In this document: piece by piece, positions 27,590 through 37,200 of the stretch
Position numbering within the stretch: the stretch's first letter is position 1
Layout: the number at the start of each line of letters is the position of its first letter
From: an uncultured cyanobacterium
GTDB lineage: Bacteria > Cyanobacteriota > Cyanobacteriia > PCC-6307 > Cyanobiaceae
Length of the DNA stretch: 64,000 nt
Direction of reading: 5' to 3'
Assembly (NCBI GenBank): GCA_963765575.1
Contig: CAVXWZ010000001.1
Coordinates: 320,001 to 384,000, forward strand
Translations under genes and position numbers: made by a program
Notes under the pieces: generated by a model
The model's input: the letters and a program-made list of their open reading frames with translations, nothing else
What the model was told of the DNA's origin: nothing
Databases searched by the model: none

Positions 27590-27821
27590 AAGACCGGTCC
27601 TTGCCGCCTTTGCTATCGCGAACAGTGACGTTCTGCCGCTCGACATCGAGATCCTTGACGCGCCACCGCAGCGCTTCCATCAGCCGTAAGCCGCTGCCAT
27701 CCAGCAGCCCAACCACCGGAGCCGGATCACCCTCCAATCGTTCCCGCACCACGCCATCCAGTTCCAGATCACGATCCAGCAGTACGCGGTACAGGAACAA
27801 CAACGCCGAGATGGCCTGACG
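27590..27821 (-). pseudogene. Integron integrase (IntI-type tyrosine recombinase) fragment
   Basis: [51 protein letters not shown]. Both termini and an internal segment are missing. Confidence 0.75.
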
Positions 27822-27867
27822 CCCTGCGCCACGGCTACGGCCCAGGGTTGCCACCGGCACCGCCTGC

Positions 27868-29193
27868 TCAGCAATCCAGACAGGCGCGCCGCTCCGCGTC
27901 GCTGATGTCGCCCCGCTCGCGTTGCCACTGGCGGCGGCGCAAGCGGCCGTACGCCTGGCAGAACTCCTCCCCCAGGGCCTGGCGCAGGCGGCTGTCGGCA
28001 TCGAAGGCATCAAGGGCCTCGCCCAGGTCGGCGGGCAGCCGTGGACACACTTCGGGCGCCAGCGGTGCGGCGTAGTTGTCGTTGTCGTGGCGCGGGCCGG
28101 GCTGCAGCTGGCGCTCGATACCATCCAGCCCCGCCGCCAGGATGGCGGCCTGGAGCAGGTAGGGATGGGTGGAGCCGTCGGGTAGGCGCAGCTCCAGGCG
28201 TTGGTCGTCGGGAATGCGCAGCATGTGGGTGCGGTTGTTGCCGCAGTAACTGATCCCCGCCGGTGACCAGGTGGCACCCGACGTGGTGGGCGGTGCGGCC
28301 AGCCTTCGGTAGCTGTTCACCGTGGGGTTGGTGAGGGCGCAGAGGGCCGGGGCGTGCTCCAGCAGGCCCGCCAAAAACTGATAGGCCAGCGGTGAGAGGC
28401 CCAGTTCGCCGGCAGGATCGGGGAAGAGGTTGATGGCTGCTGTCTGGGTGGCGTCGCCACCGGCGGATCCCCAGAGTGAAAGATGGGTGTGGCAGCCGTT
28501 GCCGGTGCGCTCGGCGAAGGGCTTGGCCATGAAGCTGGCCTTCAGCCCCTGCTGTTCCGCCAGCGACTTCACCATCACCTTGAAGAAGGCGTGGCGATCG
28601 GCGGTGGTGAGGGCGTTGGCGAAGGTCCAGTTCACCTCAAACTGGCCGTTGGCGTCCTCGTGATCAGCCTGGTAGGGGCCCCAGCCCAGCTGCTCCATCG
28701 CCTCCAGCAGCGGGCCGATCAGGCCGTAGTGGCGCATCAAGGCCAGCTGGTCGTAGCAGGGTTTCTCCTGGTGGTCGGCCGGATCGGCGATGCCGCCGCC
28801 ATCGGCCGCCAGCAGAAAAAACTCGGCCTCCACGCCGCTGCGCAGCTCGTAGCCCAGGGCGGCGGCCCGCTGCAGCTGCTTCCGCAGCAGCCGGCGGGGG
28901 CACTGGGCCATCGGCGTTCCCCCCAGCACCAGTTCGGCCGCCACCCAGCCCACCTCCGGTTGCCAGGGCAGGGGGGTGAGGCTGGCGGCGTCGGGCAGGG
29001 CCATCACGTCGCCGTCGGCCGGGGAGAGATCCAGCCAGGCGGCGAAGCCGGCGAAACCGGCACCATCGCGGGCCATCGCGGCGATGGCGGCGGCGGGCAC
29101 GAGCTTGGCGCGCTGGATGCCGAACAGGTCGGTGAAGGAGATCAGCAGGAACTTGAGCTGCAGCTCCCGGGCCTGGCGGGCGAGATCGGTCAT
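27868..29193 (-). CDS. glnT: GlnT-type glutamine synthetase / gamma-glutamylmethylamide synthetase (GmaS)-like ligase
   Basis: [78 protein letters not shown]. Confidence 0.85.
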
Positions 29194-29238
29194 GGCGGCT
29201 GGTGGATGGAGGAAGGAGGGGCCCGGCGCCAGGGCCAG

Positions 29239-30237
29239 TCAGCTGGCCAGCAGCTGATCAACGACGTGGCGCAGCAGCTGCTGCTCGTTGGGGTTGCTGT
29301 GGGGGTTGCCGGCCCGGTGGCCGAGCGGGGAGTCGATGCGGTGCAGGCGGGCGCCGGGGATGCAGCGCGCTTCGGCGGCGAGGTCGTCGACGGGGAAATA
29401 GAGGTCGTGGCTGCCGGCCACGACGGCCGTTCTGGCCTCGATGCGGCCCAGGGCGGCGGCCAGGTCACCACCGCCGGCCACGTCGTGGTTCAGCCAGGTG
29501 TCGAGCATGGCGATGAGATCGCGGGGATCGTGGCGGCGGTAGTGGGGCAGCCACTGCTCGCGCACGTGCTGCTCCACCGGTTCGGCGATGCTGCGGAAGA
29601 AGGGCTGGCTGGCCGCCCAGCTGGCGTAGATCAGCGCGTAGGTGAGCAGCCCCTGTTCCGGTGCGGCGTCGAAGCCCGAGCCGTTCCAGTGCCGATCGGC
29701 GGTGAGCGCCTGGCGCAGGCTGAGGCAGAACAGGCGGTTGTGGGGGGTGGTGCGGGCGGTGCCGCAGACGCAGCAGATCCGCTGCACCGTTTCGGGATGG
29801 TCCACCGCCCAGCGGTAGGCCTGCTGGGCCCCCATCGACCAGCCATAGATCAGGGCCGGCCGCTCGACGCCGAACACCTCCCGCAGCAGCCGGCGCTGGG
29901 CGGCGACGTTGTCGCCATGCCCCACCACCCAGCCCTGCTCGGCCAGACCCATGACGCCGTGGCTGGGGCTGCTGGAGGCGCCGTTGCCGAACATCCCCGC
30001 GATCAGCACGCACCAGCGCTGCGGGTCGAACACCGGCCCGGCCAGCCAGGCCAGATCCTCCACCCGCGCCCCGTAGGAACTGGGCACCAGGATCAGGTTG
30101 GAGCGGTCGGGCGTGAGCTGGCCGATGCGCAGGTAGCTGATCCGCGCCTCGGGGATGGTGTGGCCGCACTGGAGAACAAACCGCCCCAGGTTGTGCAGAC
30201 CGTGGTGCCGGGGTGGTGCCGTGGGGGTGCTGGTCAT
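29239..30237 (-). CDS. Alpha/beta hydrolase, homoserine O-acetyltransferase (MetX)-fold
   Basis: GWSMGA nucleophile elbow, DLYFP, GHRAG (Ser-Asp-His triad), MFGNGASSSPS. Confidence 0.8.
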   Translation of the reverse strand: MTSTPTAPPRHHGLHNLGRFVLQCGHTIPEARISYLRIGQLTPDRSNLILVPSSYGARVEDLAWLAGPVFDPQRWCVLIAGMFGNGASSSPSHGVMGLAEQGWVVGHGDNVAAQRRLLREVFGVERPALIYGWSMGAQQAYRWAVDHPETVQRICCVCGTARTTPHNRLFCLSLRQALTADRHWNGSGFDAAPEQGLLTYALIYASWAASQPFFRSIAEPVEQHVREQWLPHYRRHDPRDLIAMLDTWLNHDVAGGGDLAAALGRIEARTAVVAGSHDLYFPVDDLAAEARCIPGARLHRIDSPLGHRAGNPHSNPNEQQLLRHVVDQLLAS

Positions 30238-30258
30238 GGCCCCGCGCTCAAGCCCCAC

Positions 30259-31191
30259 TCATGCGGCGCTGCCCTGGGCCGGCAGGGCCAGGGCGGACAG
30301 ATCGGCCAGCAGCTGGCGATGCACGTTCAGGTAGCCGTGGTCGAGGTGCTGCAGATGGGGAGCGATCAGCTGGTGGGCCGCCGGCAGGGCGTGGAAGGGC
30401 AGCGAGGGATAGAGGTGGTGCTCGGCGTGGAAGGGCATGTTCCACATCAGCCAGCGCACCGGCGCGGTGGTGAGGGTGGTGCGGGTGTTGCTGGTGCCAT
30501 CGGCGCTGAAGCTGCAGCCGCTGTGTTCCGCCAGCAACAGAAAGCGCAGGACGGGTTGGCCGATGGCCAGGGGCAGCAGCCAGAACCAGAGCAGGAAGCC
30601 GTTGGCGCCGATCAGCGAGAGCAGCGCCAGCACCCCGACCACCCCGGCCTGGAGCCAGGCCGAGCGGCGCACCTGGGGGATCACCTGGGGGTTGAGGTAG
30701 GGCACGGAGGCGAGATCACCCCAGAGCAGGCGGGCATGGCCGCGCAGCTTGCCGGTCCACCAGTTGCAGCCACTGAGTTCGCGGAGGTAGCCGGCCGCGG
30801 AGGTCGGTGCCGGGTCGTCGAGCTCGGGATCGAGCCCCGGCTGATGGGTGTAGCGGTGGTGCCACTGGTGGTAGCGGCGGTAGGCGGTGGCGTTGTAAAA
30901 GCTCAGCAGCCCCAGAAGCCAGGCCGCGGCGTCGTTCACCCGCCTGTTGCGGAAGGCGGTGCGATGGCTGCATTCATGCAGGCCCGCGAAGCTGGTGGCC
31001 AGCGCCACCCCCAGGGCGACCAGCCCGACGAGACGCAGCCCCAGGGGCAGGGCCGCCGACCCCCACAGCAGGCCGGCCCCAGCGATCAGCCCCAGGTGGC
31101 CCGCCAGCCGCCAGGCCGCCGGGCCGTTGCGCAGTCCGTTGAGTTCCGCCAGGCGGGAACGTGCGATCAGCTCGGGTACGGGCGCGGCCAT
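30259..31191 (-). CDS. Membrane di-iron fatty-acid-desaturase-family protein, MocD-like
   Basis: His boxes HECSH, HQWHH, EH, HAEHH; DPEL; YPSLPFHALP. Confidence 0.8.
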   Translation of the reverse strand: MAAPVPELIARSRLAELNGLRNGPAAWRLAGHLGLIAGAGLLWGSAALPLGLRLVGLVALGVALATSFAGLHECSHRTAFRNRRVNDAAAWLLGLLSFYNATAYRRYHQWHHRYTHQPGLDPELDDPAPTSAAGYLRELSGCNWWTGKLRGHARLLWGDLASVPYLNPQVIPQVRRSAWLQAGVVGVLALLSLIGANGFLLWFWLLPLAIGQPVLRFLLLAEHSGCSFSADGTSNTRTTLTTAPVRWLMWNMPFHAEHHLYPSLPFHALPAAHQLIAPHLQHLDHGYLNVHRQLLADLSALALPAQGSAA

Positions 31192-31231
31192 GGGGGGGAG
31201 CTGGGGGGAACGCAGTGCGGCGCGAGTTGTC

Positions 31232-31274
31232 ATCACAGCAGCGCCGCGGGCAGCGCTGCGGTAGGCGTTGCCAC
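31232..31274 (-). promoter_or_regulatory. Candidate NtcA-activated promoter of the desaturase-hydrolase-glnT operon
   Basis: GTG-N8-TAC (31274-31261, minus strand), then 23 nt, then TGTGAT (31237-31232) preceded by TGn. Confidence 0.45.
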
Positions 31275-31391: not shown

Positions 31392-31592
31392 ATGGCGACC
31401 TCTCTGTTCATCAGCCCCTCCGAGGCCCTGCCCGGGGACAGCGCCGACCCCAGGCGGCCGGCGCTGATTGCCTCCCTGCGCAGCCGTTACGCCGCCGCGG
31501 AGCTCCGCCAGGATGCCGCCGCCAAGCAGGAGCTGTTCCGCGAGGCGGTGTATCTCGGCATCCGGCCCGAGGATTTCACCCCCCCGGGCTGA
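31392..31592 (+). CDS. Small hypothetical protein (66 aa)
   Basis: MATSLFISPSEALPG...KQELFREAVYLGIRPEDF; GC3-rich codons; divergent from the desaturase. Confidence 0.55.
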   Translation: MATSLFISPSEALPGDSADPRRPALIASLRSRYAAAELRQDAAAKQELFREAVYLGIRPEDFTPPG

Positions 31593-32352
31593 GCAGCGGG
31601 TCCAGGCCCCGCAGGCAGCTGGCCAGTTCCTCGCGCAGGTCGAGGAATTTCCGTGAAACCCGCAGGTGGCGCAGGTCGGAGCGGTCCAGCTCCACCGCCA
31701 CCGAGCGCACGATGCGGCCGGGGTTGGGCGCCAGGATGTGCACCTCGCCGGCCAGCAGCAGGGCCTCCTCCAGGTCGTGGGTGATCAGCAGGGCGGACAG
31801 GCCCGTGCGCTGCCAGAGGTTGTGCATGAACTCCTGCATCGATTCGCGGATCTGCAGATCCAGGGCACCGAAGGGCTCATCGAGCAGCAGCACCCGGGGT
31901 TGGGCGGCCAGGGCGCGGGCGATGGCCACCCGCTGCTGCATGCCGCCGGAGAGCTCCCGCGGCAGCCGCCGGGCCGCGTCGGCCAGCCCCACCACCTCCA
32001 GGAAATAGCTGGTGCGCTCGCGGATCTCGCGCCGGTCGAGACCCTGCAGCTCCATGCCGAAGGCCACGTTCTGGGCAGCCGTGAGCCAGGGGTAGAGGCT
32101 GTACTTCTGGAACACCATGCCCCGGTCCGAGCCCGGGCCGCGCACGGGGGCACCGTCGAGGGTGATCACGCCGGCACTGGGCTGATCCAGCCCGGCCACC
32201 AGCCGCATCATCGTGGACTTGCCGGAGCCGGAGCTGCCCACCAGGGCCACGAACTCGCCGGTGTTGACGCTGAAGTTGATGGTCTCGAGCACGAGCTTGC
32301 GGCGGCGGCCGGTGCCGAAGCTCTTGCTCACCTGATCAACGCAAAGCTGCAT
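31576..32352 (-). CDS. ABC transporter ATP-binding protein (TauB/NitT type), guanidine operon
   Basis: GSSGSGKS, LSGGMQQR, LLLDEPF, ITHD. Confidence 0.92.
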   Translation of the reverse strand: MQLCVDQVSKSFGTGRRRKLVLETINFSVNTGEFVALVGSSGSGKSTMMRLVAGLDQPSAGVITLDGAPVRGPGSDRGMVFQKYSLYPWLTAAQNVAFGMELQGLDRREIRERTSYFLEVVGLADAARRLPRELSGGMQQRVAIARALAAQPRVLLLDEPFGALDLQIRESMQEFMHNLWQRTGLSALLITHDLEEALLLAGEVHILAPNPGRIVRSVAVELDRSDLRHLRVSRKFLDLREELASCLRGLDPLLSPGG

Positions 32353-32380
32353 GAGGGGATCGACGGCGTTGGCGGCGGAC

Positions 32381-33148
32381 TCAGTTGGCCCAGGCACAGG
32401 CCCGGCGCATCACCAGCCGGAAGCCCAGATCGATCACCAGCCCGATCAGGCCGATCACGATCAGTCCCAGAAAGATCTCATCGGTGCGTAGAAAGCGCTG
32501 GGCCAGGCTGATGCGCTTGCCCAGCCCCTCGTTGGCCGCCACCAGTTCGGCGACGATCACCAGATTCCAGGCGGCGGCCATGTTGATCCGGTAGGCGTCG
32601 ATCACCTGGGGGGCGATGCAGGGGGTGATCACCCGCAACAGCACCTGGGAGCTGCGGCCGCCGAGGGTGAGGGCGGTCTCCACCAGTTCGCGGGGCACGA
32701 ACTTCACCGCATCCATGATCATCAGCGTGTTGAAGAACAGGGTGCCGATGAAGATCAGCAGGATCTTCGGCAACTCGCCCAGGCCGAAATAGATGATCAG
32801 CAGGGGAATGAACGCCGGTGCCGGCATGTAGCGGATCAGCCCCACCAGCGGCTCCAGCAGCCGGTTGATCACGGTGCTGGTGCCCATGGCGATGCCGAGG
32901 GGCAGGGCCACGATGGCCGAGAGGCCGAAGCCGCCCAGCACCCGCCCCACACTTGCCACCAGGTCGGCCCAGAGCAGCCCCTCGCTGGCCTGCTCCTGGC
33001 CGGCCGCCCACACCGCCGCCGGACTGGGCAGAAACAGGGGATCCACCAGCTGGAGGCCGGTGACCAGGGTCCAGATCAGCAGCACCACCAGCACCCCGGT
33101 GAGGCCGAGGATCCAGGGGTGCCGGACCAGCTCCTGCAGTCGCGCCAT
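32381..33148 (-). CDS. ABC transporter permease, guanidine operon
   Basis: FLPSP, ELVETALTLG (EAA loop), LVIVAELVAANEGLG. Confidence 0.92.
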   Translation of the reverse strand: MARLQELVRHPWILGLTGVLVVLLIWTLVTGLQLVDPLFLPSPAAVWAAGQEQASEGLLWADLVASVGRVLGGFGLSAIVALPLGIAMGTSTVINRLLEPLVGLIRYMPAPAFIPLLIIYFGLGELPKILLIFIGTLFFNTLMIMDAVKFVPRELVETALTLGGRSSQVLLRVITPCIAPQVIDAYRINMAAAWNLVIVAELVAANEGLGKRISLAQRFLRTDEIFLGLIVIGLIGLVIDLGFRLVMRRACAWAN

Positions 33149-33169
33149 GGCCGCCAGCGCCTCCCCGCC

Positions 33170-34207
33170 TCAGTTGGCCTGGGCCGCTTTGACGAAGCGG
33201 CCCTCGAACAGGCCGTCGAGCGGCGGCGGGCTGTCCGCCAGCCCCACCTGCTGCAGGAAGGTGCTGATCTGCTCGGCGGCGAAGGGCAGCGAGGCCATGG
33301 TGGTGCCGGGCTCGAGGGCCTGCAGGTTGTCGTCGAGGCTGAACAGGGTGGTGCCGGCCTCGTACTCCCGGTACTCGTCTTCGCTCACACCGCCGCGGGC
33401 ACTGAGGATGGTCAGTGAGCCCTCGGGATCAGCCTCCATCGCCGCCAGGGTGGCGAACCAGGCATTCACCACCGCCTGCACCTTCTCCGGGTTGTTGGCC
33501 ACGAACTCCGAGCGGCACACCAGGTGGTCGCTGATGGCGCCGGGGAAGTCGGCCGAGGAGAACAGGGTGGTGCTGCCGTCACGCCTGAGGGCCTGGGTGG
33601 TGAAGGGAGCGAACACGCCCACCGCATCCACCTGGCCGGCCACAAAGGCGGCGGCGGCGGCGCCTGTCTCCAGGGGCACGAAGGTGATGTCGTCGGCGGA
33701 GAGGCCCGCCTCCTCAAGGCCGAGCAACAGCAGATAGTGGTCCACGGTGCCTTCTTCGGCGGCCACCGACTTGCCCTGGAGATCGGCGATGGTGTTGATG
33801 CCCTCGGCCACGATGATCTGGTCGTTGCCGGTGGAGTTGTCGTTGGTGAGCACCACCTGCAGGTCGGCGCCGCCGGCGACCGAAGAGATCGTGTCGTTCA
33901 GGGTCTGGCTGTTGCAGTCGAGCTGGCCGGCGTTGAGGGCGTTGATCGAATCGAGGTAGCCGTCAAACCACTGCAGGGTCACCGGCACGCCGAACAGGCC
34001 CTTCTCCTCGGTGACCTGCCAGGGGATCCAGCCGGGCCAGGCGCTGAAACCGATCCGCACCGGCGTGTCGGAGCTGCCGCCGCCCTGGTCGCCGCCCCGG
34101 CCGCCACAGGCGGTGAGGGCGCCGGCGCCGAGGCCGAGCAACAGCAGGGTGGCCAGCAGGCGGGTGCGCGTGCGGCGCCGGGGACGGGGAGTGGTCATGG
34201 GGATCAA
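33170..34207 (-). CDS. ABC substrate-binding lipoprotein, probably guanidine-binding
   Basis: Lipobox LTAC; FSAWPGW, DNSTGND, EEGTVDH; operon context. Confidence 0.88.
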   Translation of the reverse strand: MIPMTTPRPRRRTRTRLLATLLLLGLGAGALTACGGRGGDQGGGSSDTPVRIGFSAWPGWIPWQVTEEKGLFGVPVTLQWFDGYLDSINALNAGQLDCNSQTLNDTISSVAGGADLQVVLTNDNSTGNDQIIVAEGINTIADLQGKSVAAEEGTVDHYLLLLGLEEAGLSADDITFVPLETGAAAAAFVAGQVDAVGVFAPFTTQALRRDGSTTLFSSADFPGAISDHLVCRSEFVANNPEKVQAVVNAWFATLAAMEADPEGSLTILSARGGVSEDEYREYEAGTTLFSLDDNLQALEPGTTMASLPFAAEQISTFLQQVGLADSPPPLDGLFEGRFVKAAQAN

Positions 34208-34263
34208 GGCGGAGTTGGGGTTGGAGCTGGAATCGATGGAGTCGGATCAGGAAGCGGCAGGCG

Positions 34264-34989
34264 TCATGGGCTCACCAGCTCCGGAATCGGCGCCTCGGAT
34301 GCGCCGCGCGCGGCCTGCAGCAGCGCCCGCTGCTGCTCCAGCCAGGCGTGCCAGGCCGCCAGGCCCTCGCCGTTGGTGGCCGACACGCGGATCACGGCGC
34401 AGCGCGGATTCACCTGGCGGATGTGGGCTTCGATCCGCTCCACGTCCACCGGCAGGTAGGGCAGCAGGTCGGTCTTGGTGATCAGCACGCAGTCGGCCTC
34501 GCGGAACATCACCGGGTACTTGAGGGGCTTGTCTTCCCCTTCGGTGACGCTGAGCAGGGCCACCTTGCGGTGCTCGCCGATGGCGAATTCGGCGGGGCAC
34601 ACCAGGTTGCCCACGTTCTCCACCCAGAGCAGATCGAGGCCGGCGGGATCGAGGCGCTGGCCCAGCAGCCGGAGGCCGCCACTCACCATCGCCGCATCCA
34701 GATGGCAGGCGCGGCCGGTGGTGATCGGCACCACCGGCACGCCCACGGCCTGCAGCCGCTCGGCGTCGAGCTGGGTGGTCATGTCGCCCTCCAGCACCGC
34801 CATGGCGTAGGTGCCGGCCAGCTGGGCCAGGGAGCGCTCCAGCAGGGAGGTCTTGCCGGCGCCGGGGCTGCTCATCACGTTCAGGCAGAGCAGCTGCCAG
34901 GCGTCGAAGTGCTCGCGGTTGTGCTCCGCCTGGTGCTCATTGGCCGCCAGCAGGTTGAGGCCGAGGGTGTCTTCCAGGGACATGTGCAT
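34264..34989 (-). CDS. hypB: Nickel-insertion GTPase HypB
   Basis: [33 protein letters not shown]. Confidence 0.93.
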
Positions 34990-34994
34990 GGCGA

Positions 34995-35405
34995 TCAGGC
35001 GCAGGGGGAGAGTGATGCAGAAGGGTGGCCGGAACAGGCCTCGCTGCGGTGATCGAGGCTGTAATCCACCGAGCGGATCTTCAGCTCGCGGCCGCTCACG
35101 ATCTCCTCCATCGGGTGCTGGCAGCAGGGGGAGCGGTAGCCCGCTTCGGCGCTGGGCTGGTAGGTGCCGTTGCAGAGCACGCAGCGGCCCACCAGGGGCA
35201 CCGATTCGATCGCCAGGCGGGCTCCGGCCAGCCAGCTCGACTGCACGGCCGCCTGCCAGGTGGACACCAGCTGAGCGGGTTCAACGCAGGTGAAGTCCCC
35301 CACCAGCAGGTGCACGGTGGCCACCTTGGGTGTGGCCGGGGCGTGGCCCTGCTTCCACTCGTTCATCGAGAGCAGCAGGCACTTGGTCATGTCGACTTCG
35401 TGCAT
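34995..35405 (-). CDS. hypA: Nickel metallochaperone HypA
   Basis: N-terminal MHE, CVLC and SPCC, SGREL. Confidence 0.9.
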
Positions 35406-35409
35406 GGTC

Positions 35410-36615
35410 CTATCTCCATTTCTGATCGACGGCCATGTTGCAGTGATCGTGCAGCCAGGCCGGTTTCTCTTTCCTGGGCAGCTGGCCGCTCACCACCAGG
35501 TGGGCCATCACATCGCAGATCACGCGGGTGGCCATCAGCGAGGTCATGTCGCTGATGTCGTAAGGGGGCGACACCTCCACCACCTCAAGGCCGCAGACCG
35601 GCACGTTGCGCACGATCAACTCCAGCAACTTCAGTGCTTCGCGGGGCAGCAGGCCGCCGGGTTCGGGCCAGCCGGTGCCGGGCACGAAGCCGGCGTCGAT
35701 GCAGTCGATGTCGAAGGAGATGTAGACGCAGTCGGTGCCATCGGTGGCGCGCTCGATCGCGTACTGGGCGGCCGCCTCCAGGCCCATGTCGCAGATGTCG
35801 GTGACGGTGAGCACGTTGGTGCCCCGCTCGCGGCACACCTTCACCCCTTCGCGCGGCACCTGCCAGCCGCCGATGCCCAGTTGCACCAGGTTTTCGGCCG
35901 GGGCGTTGGCCATGTTCGTGGCGTGGAACCACGGACAGGTGTGCATGCGCTCGTCGAGGTCGATCTCCTGGGTGTCGACATGGCGATCGAAGTGGATGAT
36001 GCCCACCTTCTTGTCGCCCAGGTGGCGGCAGACGCCCCGCACGGTGGGAAAGCCGATCGAGTGATCGCCGCCGAGGATGATCGGGAAGGCGCCACTGGCG
36101 AACACGTGGGCCACGCCCTTGGAGATCTGATCGAAGCTCTTCTCGTTGTTGGCGGGAATCGTGAAGATGTCGCCCACATCGCAGAGCCGGATCGACTCGC
36201 GCAGGTCGACGCCCATCTCGTAGTTGTAGGGCGTGTAGAGGGCCGAGATGCGGCGGATGCCCTGGGGCCCGAAGCGGGTGCCGGGCCGGTAGGTGGTGCC
36301 GGAATCGTGGGGCACCCCCAGGATCGCCACATCGAACTCGCCGACGCGGTTCACGTCTTCGATGTAGGGCGCCTTCATGAAGGTGTTGATGCCCGCGTAG
36401 TGGGGCAGCTCGCCGCGCGAGAAGGTGGAGATGCGCCGATCGACGATGCTCTCGGCCGCCTCCAGGCCATAGCGCAGGCCCTGATCCACCTCCTGCTGCC
36501 AGCCGGTGAGCGGCAGGCGGGCTTCCTTCTCCAGGGCCTCGGCGCCCTGGCGGCCCGTGGCTGGAGCCTGAGTGCGCCGGTCAAAGGCCCCTTCAGGGCC
36601 TGGAGATGCGGTCAT
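35410..36615 (-). CDS. gdmH: Ni-dependent guanidine hydrolase (arginase/agmatinase family)
   Basis: GGDHS, HFDRHVD, SFDIDCID, GTGWPEPGG; followed by hypA-hypB-ABC and preceded by a guanidine-I riboswitch, the same order as Synechocystis sll1077-sll1082. Confidence 0.88.
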   Translation of the reverse strand: MTASPGPEGAFDRRTQAPATGRQGAEALEKEARLPLTGWQQEVDQGLRYGLEAAESIVDRRISTFSRGELPHYAGINTFMKAPYIEDVNRVGEFDVAILGVPHDSGTTYRPGTRFGPQGIRRISALYTPYNYEMGVDLRESIRLCDVGDIFTIPANNEKSFDQISKGVAHVFASGAFPIILGGDHSIGFPTVRGVCRHLGDKKVGIIHFDRHVDTQEIDLDERMHTCPWFHATNMANAPAENLVQLGIGGWQVPREGVKVCRERGTNVLTVTDICDMGLEAAAQYAIERATDGTDCVYISFDIDCIDAGFVPGTGWPEPGGLLPREALKLLELIVRNVPVCGLEVVEVSPPYDISDMTSLMATRVICDVMAHLVVSGQLPRKEKPAWLHDHCNMAVDQKWR

Positions 36616-36643
36616 GGCACGACACGGAGGTGGGGGTGTGCGG

Positions 36644-36765
36644 TCTCCCGGGCTTTTATCCCTCCGTGCAACCGGGTGACCCCGGTGAGCTTCTCTCGGA
36701 CCAGACGTCTCAAGGGCATGGCATGGAGGGCCACACCTGATCGAGACCGGAACCCTAGAAGCTGC
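36644..36765 (-). ncRNA. Guanidine-I (ykkC-yxkD) riboswitch
   Basis: Minus strand reads AGCTTCTAGGGTTCCG...CTGGTCCGAGAGAAGCT...CACGGAGGGATAAAAGCCCGGGAGA, matching the conserved aptamer segments, about 30 nt upstream of gdmH. Confidence 0.92.
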
Positions 36766-36777
36766 TTCCGCCCCGGA

Positions 36778-36921: not shown

Positions 36922-37200
36922 GTGAAGTACTCCACCTATCGCTACGCCAGGATGCTGCCCGTGATTCTGGGAATTCTGGCCTATGCCCTGTGGCGGGTGT
37001 TGAAGGCCTACGACGCGCTCTTTGGCCATCCCCTTGTGCTGATGCTTCTCTTCCTGCCTGCGTTGATCGTGGCTTACTTCACGATTGTCAGAAACGGATA
37101 CTGTCCGGAATGCAAGATGCCCTTTGGCCGGGAAATCAGTCGCACCTGTGTGCGCTGCGGCCATGTGTTCAGCCGCGATGACTCCGTTTCCAGGAGCTGA
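36922..37200 (+). CDS. Small two-TM protein with C-terminal zinc ribbon
   Basis: Two hydrophobic helices followed by CPEC...CVRC; lower GC than the flanks. Confidence 0.55.
   Translation: MKYSTYRYARMLPVILGILAYALWRVLKAYDALFGHPLVLMLLFLPALIVAYFTIVRNGYCPECKMPFGREISRTCVRCGHVFSRDDSVSRS

Follow-up and report, generated by a model that had tools for sequence, protein, structure and literature searches.

The window analyzed here is a stretch of 64,000 nucleotides from an uncultured cyanobacterium of the family Cyanobiaceae (contig CAVXWZ010000001.1), and its minus strand carries three genes, here called the triad, which encode a membrane di-iron enzyme, a MetX-fold hydrolase and a γ-glutamylmethylamide synthetase (GmaS). 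As judged from sequence comparisons, the triad probably assimilates the nitrogen of methylamine without the enzymes of the N-methylglutamate (NMG) pathway, replacing MgsABC-MgdABCD by a predicted chemistry. The author of an earlier note made from the window knew of no described pathway with this gene set in cyanobacteria, and our search of the open-access literature likewise found no description of the three-gene set; PMC13236597, PMC5902973, PMC13179865 and PMC9974483 proved not to concern it.

The triad is a real, conserved operon behind an NtcA-like site. Its co-oriented genes are located at 30259–31191 (MocD-type membrane di-iron enzyme with His boxes, 310 aa), 29239–30237 (alpha/beta hydrolase of the PRK07581 subfamily, 332 aa) and 27868–29193 (GmaS/GlnT-type ligase, 441 aa), and the coordinates of the open reading frames (ORFs) confirm the common orientation and the spacers of 21 nt (30238–30258) and 45 nt (29194–29238) given in the earlier note. 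The GC content at the third codon position is 0.88–0.92 in frame for the three ORFs. The ATG start of the di-iron ORF gives a protein of 310 aa, for which an identical 310-aa protein exists in the protein collection, while a longer frame starts with GTG at 31236.

In the predicted pathway, GmaS would combine glutamate and methylamine with the use of ATP to give γ-glutamylmethylamide (N5-methylglutamine). The di-iron enzyme, a predicted N-demethylase (N-methyl hydroxylase) of this amide, would then convert it to N5-(hydroxymethyl)glutamine in a hydroxylation dependent on O2 and probably on ferredoxin, and perhaps oxidize it a second time to N5-formylglutamine. In the third step, which is the least certain, the hydrolase would cleave the oxidized intermediate, a carbinolamide or formyl-imide, into glutamine and formaldehyde or formate. 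Glutamine would pass to GOGAT and formaldehyde to FrmA/FghA, and the methylamine nitrogen would end as the glutamine amide. A glutamylation that precedes oxidation has a precedent in PMC11335346, and a stable N-hydroxymethyl intermediate with its own lyase has one in PMC12508155.

Ligase, oxygenase and hydrolase

The ligase scores 587.7 with TIGR03105 (cut-off 469.6), whereas it stays below the cut-off of the GlnA model and reaches 238 with GGputSyn (cut-off 650). A sequence search of the PDB matched it to 7cql with an E-value of 1e-162. When the functional residues that PMC7948447 gives for the GmaS of Rhodovulum (RhGmaS) were mapped through the 7cql alignment, 22 of the 23 were identical in the ligase, and the remaining one is the conservative exchange Y191F. 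The methylamine pocket and the catalytic residues (K30', Y147, Q175, D177, E179, E186, N188 and R312 of RhGmaS) are all among the identical ones. The GmaS-type residues A48 and W309 (Ala48 and Trp300 of RhGmaS) are present in the window ligase and in every aligned triad orthologue, and the ammonium-binding Asp (Asp50') and the Glu-flap glutamate of glutamine synthetase (GS) are absent.

In a quick IQ-TREE analysis of 48 GS-family proteins, a set without the PuuA and RhGmaS sequences, the triad ligases clustered (support 98) with alphaproteobacterial GlnT encoded directly behind mgsABC, separately from GlnA and two further GS-like groups of cyanobacteria. This placement and the residues above agree with the GlnT/GmaS type that the earlier note had proposed. 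The Km values of RhGmaS reported in PMC7948447 are 27 µM for methylamine, 58 µM for ethylamine and 8.7 mM for ammonium. The ligase is well supported by its sequence as a GmaS, rather than an ammonium-assimilating GS, and so is the methylamine step.

In the NMG pathway, as described in PMC7948447 and PMC13390433, γ-glutamylmethylamide yields nitrogen only via a downstream enzyme. MgsC was searched for in 42 GmaS-bearing cyanobacteria, consisting of all 19 such genomes outside the family and 23 of the 117 within it. It was found in all five genomes without the di-iron gene and in 0 of the 37 with it, and this exclusion has no exception among the genomes searched. In the genome of the window, MgsB, MgsC and MgdA were not found, which extends to the whole genome the absence of mgsABC that the earlier note had reported for the window. 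No stand-alone GXGXG protein corresponding to MgsB was seen in any of five genomes tested, and the best score with the SoxB model for SoxB/MgdA was 54 bits in five genomes, compared with 470 for a genuine cyanobacterial MgdA; the genome of the window is included in both sets.

Since Mgs is missing and γ-glutamylmethylamide gives nitrogen only through a later enzyme, that amide is the most likely substrate of the di-iron protein, and the replacement of MgsC by the di-iron gene across genomes likewise argues that it most likely acts after GmaS. The oxygenase step is moderately supported. The order proposed in the earlier note, oxidation, then hydrolysis, then glutamylation, does not agree with this replacement, and it would make γ-glutamylmethylamide a dead end that, without Mgs, gives no nitrogen.

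Apart from the triad, canonical mgdABCD-(gmaS)-mgsABC clusters occur in some cyanobacteria (loci L160, L161 and L183 of genomes G541, G589 and G380), and divergent mgsABC genes, 38–68% identical, in two (L184 and L185 of G311 and G456). A second gene with a Glu_synthase domain in the genome of the window (C2:495957-497513, plus strand) was considered as MgsC and rejected because its product is 32% identical to MgsC, no MgsA/B is encoded nearby, and it is absent from G374 and G560. The product is a stand-alone FMN glutamate-synthase-domain protein, and the gene lies in an accessory stretch of lower-looking GC. Its N-terminal part is Cys/His-rich, presumably of the CDGSH type.

The di-iron protein belongs to PF00487 and has the His boxes HECSH (72–76), HQWHH (108–112) and HAEHH (255–259); H72, E73, H76, H108, H111, H112, H223, H255, H258 and H259 are invariant in 80 homologues. 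Its AlphaFold model (pLDDT 96) has the membrane di-iron fold, and the best matches in the fold search were 8xks_K, 8xqw_M and AlkB, which assigns the protein at the superfamily level only (desaturase/AlkB fold). The three His boxes, the extra His and the helical membrane fold are those of membrane di-iron desaturases and hydroxylases. A sequence search of the PDB gave no match, no relative was found on the viral contigs searched, and the ESM Atlas returned only clusters labelled 'fatty acid desaturase'.

The best score with the DesA/B/C, CrtR and CrtW models was 34 bits, compared with cut-offs of 350–500, and each genome has a single match at E<=1e-20, that is, no paralogue. Both results speak against a DesA/DesC lipid desaturase and agree with the MocD type named in the earlier note. 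The cyanobacterial proteins form a clade (support 100) with the typical polar residues S97, Y99, N100 and K148, and homologues from rhizobial plasmids are 36–40% identical and carry no MocD label. In PMC2593844, MocD is labelled a rhizopine oxygenase that converts 3-O-methyl-scyllo-inosamine (3-O-MSI) to scyllo-inosamine (SI); the cyanobacterial homologues labelled mocD are putatively tied to rhizopine O-demethylation via this source. A different set resembling ligase, oxygenase and hydrolase was seen at L174 3599-10150 (G492) and L201 98-4991, consisting of ABC genes, another desaturase-fold protein and a metallo-beta-lactamase, with a second GmaS type in L174.

The hydrolase, with the catalytic residues S134, D278 and H307, scores 332.1 with PRK07581, right at the cut-off of 332. 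An identity as the homoserine O-acyltransferase MetX is contradicted by its score of 92 bits with the MetX model (cut-off 500) and by a GHR motif where MetX has GHD. The closest structures, 5e4y (E 1e-50) and 5d6o (E 1e-45), both with a GHL motif and labelled homoserine O-acetyltransferase by the search tool, are ones that we take to be the esterases MekB and CgHle. The motifs PxSYGA, GWSMG and GHRAGN are common to the triad hydrolases and to the proteobacterial homologues that flank a di-iron gene, and flavoprotein-linked MekB-like relatives have PTWYSG, GGSMG and GHL instead. The proteobacterial pairs of di-iron enzyme and hydrolase are accompanied by an Fe-alcohol dehydrogenase and, in one case, by a rubredoxin, and one hydrolase homologue sits among amidase and formamidase genes.

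The hydrolase may be a lyase of N5-(hydroxymethyl)glutamine, by analogy with MgdL (PMC12508155), or else a deformylase of N5-formylglutamine or a glutamyl amidase, and this step is weakly supported. The Arg that follows the catalytic His might bind a carboxylate. A dedicated short-chain dehydrogenase/reductase (SDR) was considered as a fourth component and rejected, because two SDRs encoded near hydrolase genes are only 33% alike, as unrelated SDRs are.

Conservation, promoter and gene context

In a survey of 301 genomes of the family, each triad gene was present in 118 and all three were present in 117 (about 40%). The exceptions are G049, in which no ligase and only a fragment of the hydrolase were seen, and G112, in which only a ligase fragment was seen. 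The gene order is kept in all 20 family genomes from which 20 kb were fetched. Among 80 further loci, a set that overlaps in part with these genomes, 15 were too short downstream to be counted, and 63 of the other 65 keep the order. The hydrolase is shortened or split at L099 and L101.

Outside the family, in 314 genomes of the phylum sample, 21 carry a close di-iron orthologue (46–54%) and 14 a triad-type GmaS, all 14 being among the 21. The hydrolase search outside the family covered the 31 di-iron-positive genomes and found it in 13, all with a triad-type GmaS, six of them at a distant locus. On a Leptolyngbya plasmid the triad stands alone between replication and partition genes. A complete triad was not seen outside cyanobacteria; in 80 metagenome loci, the distant di-iron gene has the hydrolase beside it in 4, and in none does the fetched DNA include GmaS.

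Upstream of the di-iron gene, an NtcA-like site of the form GTN-N8-TAC lies at 31274–31261 on the minus strand, followed 23 nt on by a putative extended −10 box, TG-C-TGTGAT, at 31232–31240. Of 111 distinct regions upstream of orthologues, 79 contain the combined pattern, compared with a mean of 6 and a maximum of 14 in 100 dinucleotide shuffles; it occurs in 2% of genome tiles. The 111 regions were obtained by collapsing 153 and are kin, and the count is therefore a measure of conservation and not of independent trials. The orthologue upstreams have a TG.TGGGAT-like consensus at the same distance from the site, a spacing that suits an NtcA regulon promoter, in which the NtcA site lies about 41 nt ahead of the start site. 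According to PMC5714215, the NtcA consensus is GTA-N8-TAC, and its GTA is strictly kept in the promoters with the strongest induction; the window site reads GTG at these positions, and a perfect GTA-N8-TAC stands ahead of three distant orthologues (L132, L135 and L137). A sigma-70 scan called no canonical promoter and no convincing terminator, the former as expected for an activator-dependent promoter. The layout fits activation by NtcA at a predicted site, which agrees with the view, already taken in the earlier note, of a nitrogen-salvage unit with its own NtcA-like promoter.

Clues to the substrate come from other loci. In G496, the triad stands at the end of an island with genes for a GntR regulator, a peptidase C26, an Amt-family transporter, a PhyH protein, a binding protein, a 500-aa GS-like ligase, a trimethylamine monooxygenase (tmm) and a trimethylamine N-oxide (TMAO) demethylase-like protein. 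The monooxygenase scores 770 with NF058570 (cut-off 675), and the TMAO-demethylase-like gene is shorter and below its cut-off. G317 has a similar trimethylamine island, with the three triad genes elsewhere in the genome. A search of 331 genomes gave Tmm in 3, and two of these have triad genes and such an island. One GntR/UTRA type stands beside several di-iron loci, within the trimethylamine island and beside an mgs cluster (46–60% identity; 46–55% for the di-iron loci and the mgs cluster); the genome of the window is without it.

The triad of G571 has frmA (626, cut-off 544) on one side and fghA (473, cut-off 282) on the other, and this context favours free formaldehyde as the product of the hydrolase step. 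In the genome of the window, frmA-fghA are located on another contig, and frmA is present in 4 of 5 other triad genomes tested.

In cyanobacteria, a module that combines the GS-like ligase of 500 aa with the PhyH dioxygenase, the binding protein and peptidase C26 recurs beside tmm/tdm at L186 7053-11878 with L170 177-7324 (G496), at L181 4676-12268 (G317) and at L157 2301-8328 (G311). It is a candidate for handling dimethylamine by way of glutamylation where no dimethylamine monooxygenase is seen.

The frequent neighbour of the triad, outside the core unit, is a guanidine operon on the minus strand at 31576–36769, in which the Guanidine-I riboswitch (36643–36769) and the order gdmH-hypA-hypB-ABC were confirmed. 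The gdmH product matches 7esr/7oi1, which we take to be Synechocystis GdmH, with an E-value of 1e-232. The earlier note had placed the triad directly downstream of this operon; it is downstream, but not directly, since a conserved hypothetical 66-aa gene on the opposite strand (31392–31592, plus) intervenes. This gene diverges from the triad and runs towards the guanidine ABC ATPase gene, whose end it overlaps by 17 nt. It was found in 35 of 72 related loci with at least 3.5 kb upstream, and its product falls in an unnamed cyanobacterial ESM Atlas cluster with no family. Upstream of the triad, guanidine ABC genes occur in 8 of the 20 family genomes and at 27 of the 61 further loci counted, and no gdmH was seen in the stretches fetched around orthologues from other families. 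The proximity of triad and guanidine operon is best explained as a clustering of genes for nitrogen scavenging, the guanidine operon not being a required partner.

In relatives, the guanidine-riboswitch operon includes a second GmaS-like ligase, which forms a clade of its own and has the pocket T48/S175/D188, a CntA/GbcA-like Rieske oxygenase and a TIM-barrel gene that faces them (L034 12011-18059, L035, L032 and L048; 20 of 61 loci). This set, which is lost in the genome of the window, is a candidate module for methylated guanidines. A 92-aa ORF between fumC and the riboswitch (36922–37200, plus) encodes two hydrophobic stretches and a C-terminal CxxC...CxxC and had no match in Pfam and NCBIfam searches. 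On an Alisedimentitalea plasmid (L178, NZ_CP123586.1), a guanidino cluster contains an arginine-deiminase-family gene, two arginase-family genes, a GS-family ligase, a hydrolase homologue, a Rieske ferredoxin and a distant di-iron homologue. The Rhodobacterales arginase-family pair was considered as a metformin/methylguanidine hydrolase and rejected, the member tested being closest to guanidinopropionase.

The gene nitH directly precedes the triad in 4 of the 20 family genomes and at 1 of the 61 further loci, and in one group of genera (L039, L040, L045 and L046) the triad follows nitH of a Nit1C nitrile/cyanide cluster nearly without a gap. The arrangement is read as clustering of nitrogen genes, and a cyanide or nitrile substrate was rejected. 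In one distant genome the triad is beside urease genes, and some genomes have urease-like ureABC(GD) genes next to gmaS or next to the di-iron gene (L140 4111-9446 of G374; L252 3-1127). Immediately past gmaS, the window has a remnant of an integron integrase (27594–27836, minus). Full-length IntI is present at the equivalent spot in relatives (L031, L032 and L033; 443 with TIGR02249 for L032, cut-off 265), with cassette-like toxin-antitoxin and small genes near it. IntI stands beside the triad in 3 of 20 and 6 of 80 loci, and another near-full copy is located on a contig of the same genome (C2:324875-325846).

Contrary evidence and competing explanations

Several observations weigh against the pathway as proposed. 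The five MgsC genomes belong to three families and carry GmaS of other subclades, and the exclusion between MgsC and the di-iron gene rests on few independent events. G535 has the di-iron gene and GmaS without the hydrolase, which implies that the latter can be dispensed with. On a Nostoc plasmid, the hydrolase and glnT are accompanied by an SDR, and the 17 kb fetched there contain no di-iron gene; the proteobacterial pairs of di-iron enzyme and hydrolase have no adjacent GmaS. The solved relatives of the hydrolase, taken to be MekB and CgHle, are ester hydrolases and neither amide hydrolases nor lyases. The tmm context is seen in two genomes only and the frmA/fghA context in one; the third tmm genome (G562) has a lone flavin-containing monooxygenase and no GmaS, and the triad genome G560 is without frmA.

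In addition, of the 21 genomes outside the family with a di-iron orthologue, 7 have neither triad-type GmaS nor the hydrolase, the di-iron gene being broken in one (G550), and of five of these seven genomes re-tested with TIGR03105 none had a score above the cut-off. These lone orthologues nest within the same clade as the triad di-iron proteins. Ordinary GS can make methylglutamine from methylamine (PMC10794816), and methylglutamine formed in this way could, as a candidate explanation, account for the lone di-iron genes.

The alternative that survives best, itself unlikely, is a pathway for ethylamine or other short alkylamines, in which GmaS would produce theanine, the di-iron enzyme would hydroxylate or desaturate the N-ethyl group, and the hydrolase, acting like an acetyl esterase, would release glutamine and acetate or acetaldehyde. 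RhGmaS takes ethylamine almost as well as methylamine, MekB, an esterase of broad specificity according to PMC2975365, belongs to the hydrolase family, and the Fe-alcohol dehydrogenase and rubredoxin beside the proteobacterial pairs would suit such a reaction. However, the informative contexts all concern C1 compounds or methylamine, namely the tmm-tdm island, frmA/fghA, the GntR type in common with the mgs cluster and the exclusion of MgsC. Methylamine and ethylamine may both be substrates.

The order of the earlier note, in which methylguanidine or another N-methyl compound would be imported, the di-iron enzyme and the hydrolase would free methylamine from it and GmaS would capture this last, is improbable. 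The gene order, which runs oxygenase-hydrolase-ligase, is consistent with it, as are the guanidine operon upstream here and at the related loci counted above, the occurrence of di-iron orthologues without GmaS, and a Rhodobacterales plasmid that groups distant homologues of all three proteins with guanidino-compound genes. The glutamylated amine would nevertheless be unusable in the 37 of 37 such genomes that lack Mgs. The proposed link to methylguanidine and gdmH is also unsupported. The guanidine genes are missing at the majority of loci and in every other family fetched, and the triad occurs alone on the Leptolyngbya plasmid and has its own promoter and an opposite-strand gene between it and the guanidine operon. 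GdmH is described as specific for guanidine and gives urea and ammonium (PMC12186494), and the guanidine operon of relatives has a GS-like ligase and a Rieske oxygenase of its own, both lost here.

Little credence is given to a role in metabolite repair, in which methylamine leaking in through Amt would be trapped as methylglutamine and the di-iron enzyme would mainly recover the glutamyl skeleton, with a minor gain of nitrogen. The seven genomes that keep the di-iron gene without GmaS or hydrolase, nested in the same clade, and the formation of methylglutamine by GS are in its favour. Against it, repair alone would give no reason to keep a dedicated GmaS of high affinity that forms the adduct deliberately, and the NtcA-type activation and the position at the end of a trimethylamine-breakdown island point to scavenging; the chemistry would be identical to that of the favoured explanation. 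A nitrogen-regulated cluster of unrelated function is very improbable. Here a desaturase of lipids or carotenoids would stand beside a general esterase and a glutamine synthetase III that assimilates ammonium, as the public annotations 'fatty acid desaturase' and 'type III glutamate--ammonia ligase' and the membrane-desaturase fold would suggest. Against this, the DesA/B, CrtR and CrtW models are all far from cut-off, the ligase lacks the ammonium-binding Asp and the Glu-flap residue of GS, and the genes are tightly co-inherited even if unlinked and show the exclusion with MgsC.

Significance and comparison with known systems

Methylated amines are climate-relevant dissolved organic nitrogen, usually assigned to heterotrophs, and gmaS serves as a marker for the NMG pathway (PMC7948447). 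If the assimilation of methylamine nitrogen by the triad is true, about 40% of the sampled family genomes (117/301) compete for methylamine by a route that is missed in mgs/mgd screens, two large orphan groups, the cyanobacterial 'mocD' desaturases and the PRK07581 hydrolases, gain a function, and the N-demethylation of an amino-acid amide joins the known reactions of membrane di-iron enzymes. Our estimate is evenly balanced on the broader proposal that freshwater/brackish picocyanobacteria and scattered other cyanobacteria use methylamine by a third aerobic route, with a di-iron N-demethylase acting on N5-methylglutamine and a MetX-fold carbinolamide lyase/deformylase giving glutamine, without Mgs, Mgd and folate, and that designs with swapped folds (GS-like ligase with PhyH and peptidase C26; second GmaS with Rieske oxygenase) serve for dimethylamine and methylated guanidines.

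The NMG pathway, GmaS-MgsABC-MgdABCD of Rhodovulum, Ruegeria and Methylocella (PMC7948447, PMC13390433), has the entry enzyme and apparently the substrate in common with the triad and, like it, can follow tmm/tdm. The triad differs in having a membrane di-iron enzyme and a MetX-fold hydrolase in place of MgsABC/MgdABCD, and its predicted products are glutamine and free formaldehyde or formate, whereas the NMG pathway gives glutamate and methylene-tetrahydrofolate. The methylguanidine demethylation by MgdH/MgdL described in PMC12508155 resembles the prediction as a two-step N-demethylation with a long-lived N-hydroxymethyl intermediate, from which a second enzyme releases formaldehyde. The folds there are unrelated to those of the triad (2-OG/Fe dioxygenase and small lyase), the substrate is different, and no glutamylation takes place.

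MocD and the arginine hydroxylase GntB (NF041365) are, like the di-iron protein, di-iron enzymes with the desaturase fold, for which small polar compounds are given as substrates, and MocD is proposed in PMC2593844 to demethylate a heteroatom, which is similar to the predicted N-demethylation. In contrast to MocD, the triad operon has no MocE/MocF-like ferredoxin or reductase genes, and a cyanobacterial ferredoxin is presumed to act; with the GntB model, the di-iron protein scores 55 (cut-off 380). The hydrolase has the fold and the Ser-Asp-His triad in common with MetX and with acyl esterases that we take to be of the MekB/CgHle type, and relatives sit behind oxygenases, but its PxSYGA, GWSMG and GHRAGN motifs define a distinct subgroup.

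Glutamylation designs made of a ligase, an oxygenase and a hydrolase also operate in the Ipu (isopropylamine) and Puu (putrescine) pathways. In the Atd/Npa systems for aniline and naphthylamine (PMC11335346), the amine is first tagged by a GS-like ligase, the resulting glutamyl amide is the substrate of an oxygenase and a hydrolase completes the reaction, and the triad would follow the same scheme, its oxygenase step being deduced from the replacement of Mgs. Compared with Atd/Npa, Ipu and Puu, the triad ligase belongs to the GmaS clade and not to PuuA/GoaS, the oxygenase is a His-box membrane di-iron enzyme and not a Rieske, P450 or flavin enzyme, and the hydrolase has an alpha/beta fold instead of that of a class-I glutamine amidotransferase, with the nitrogen predicted to stay on glutamine.

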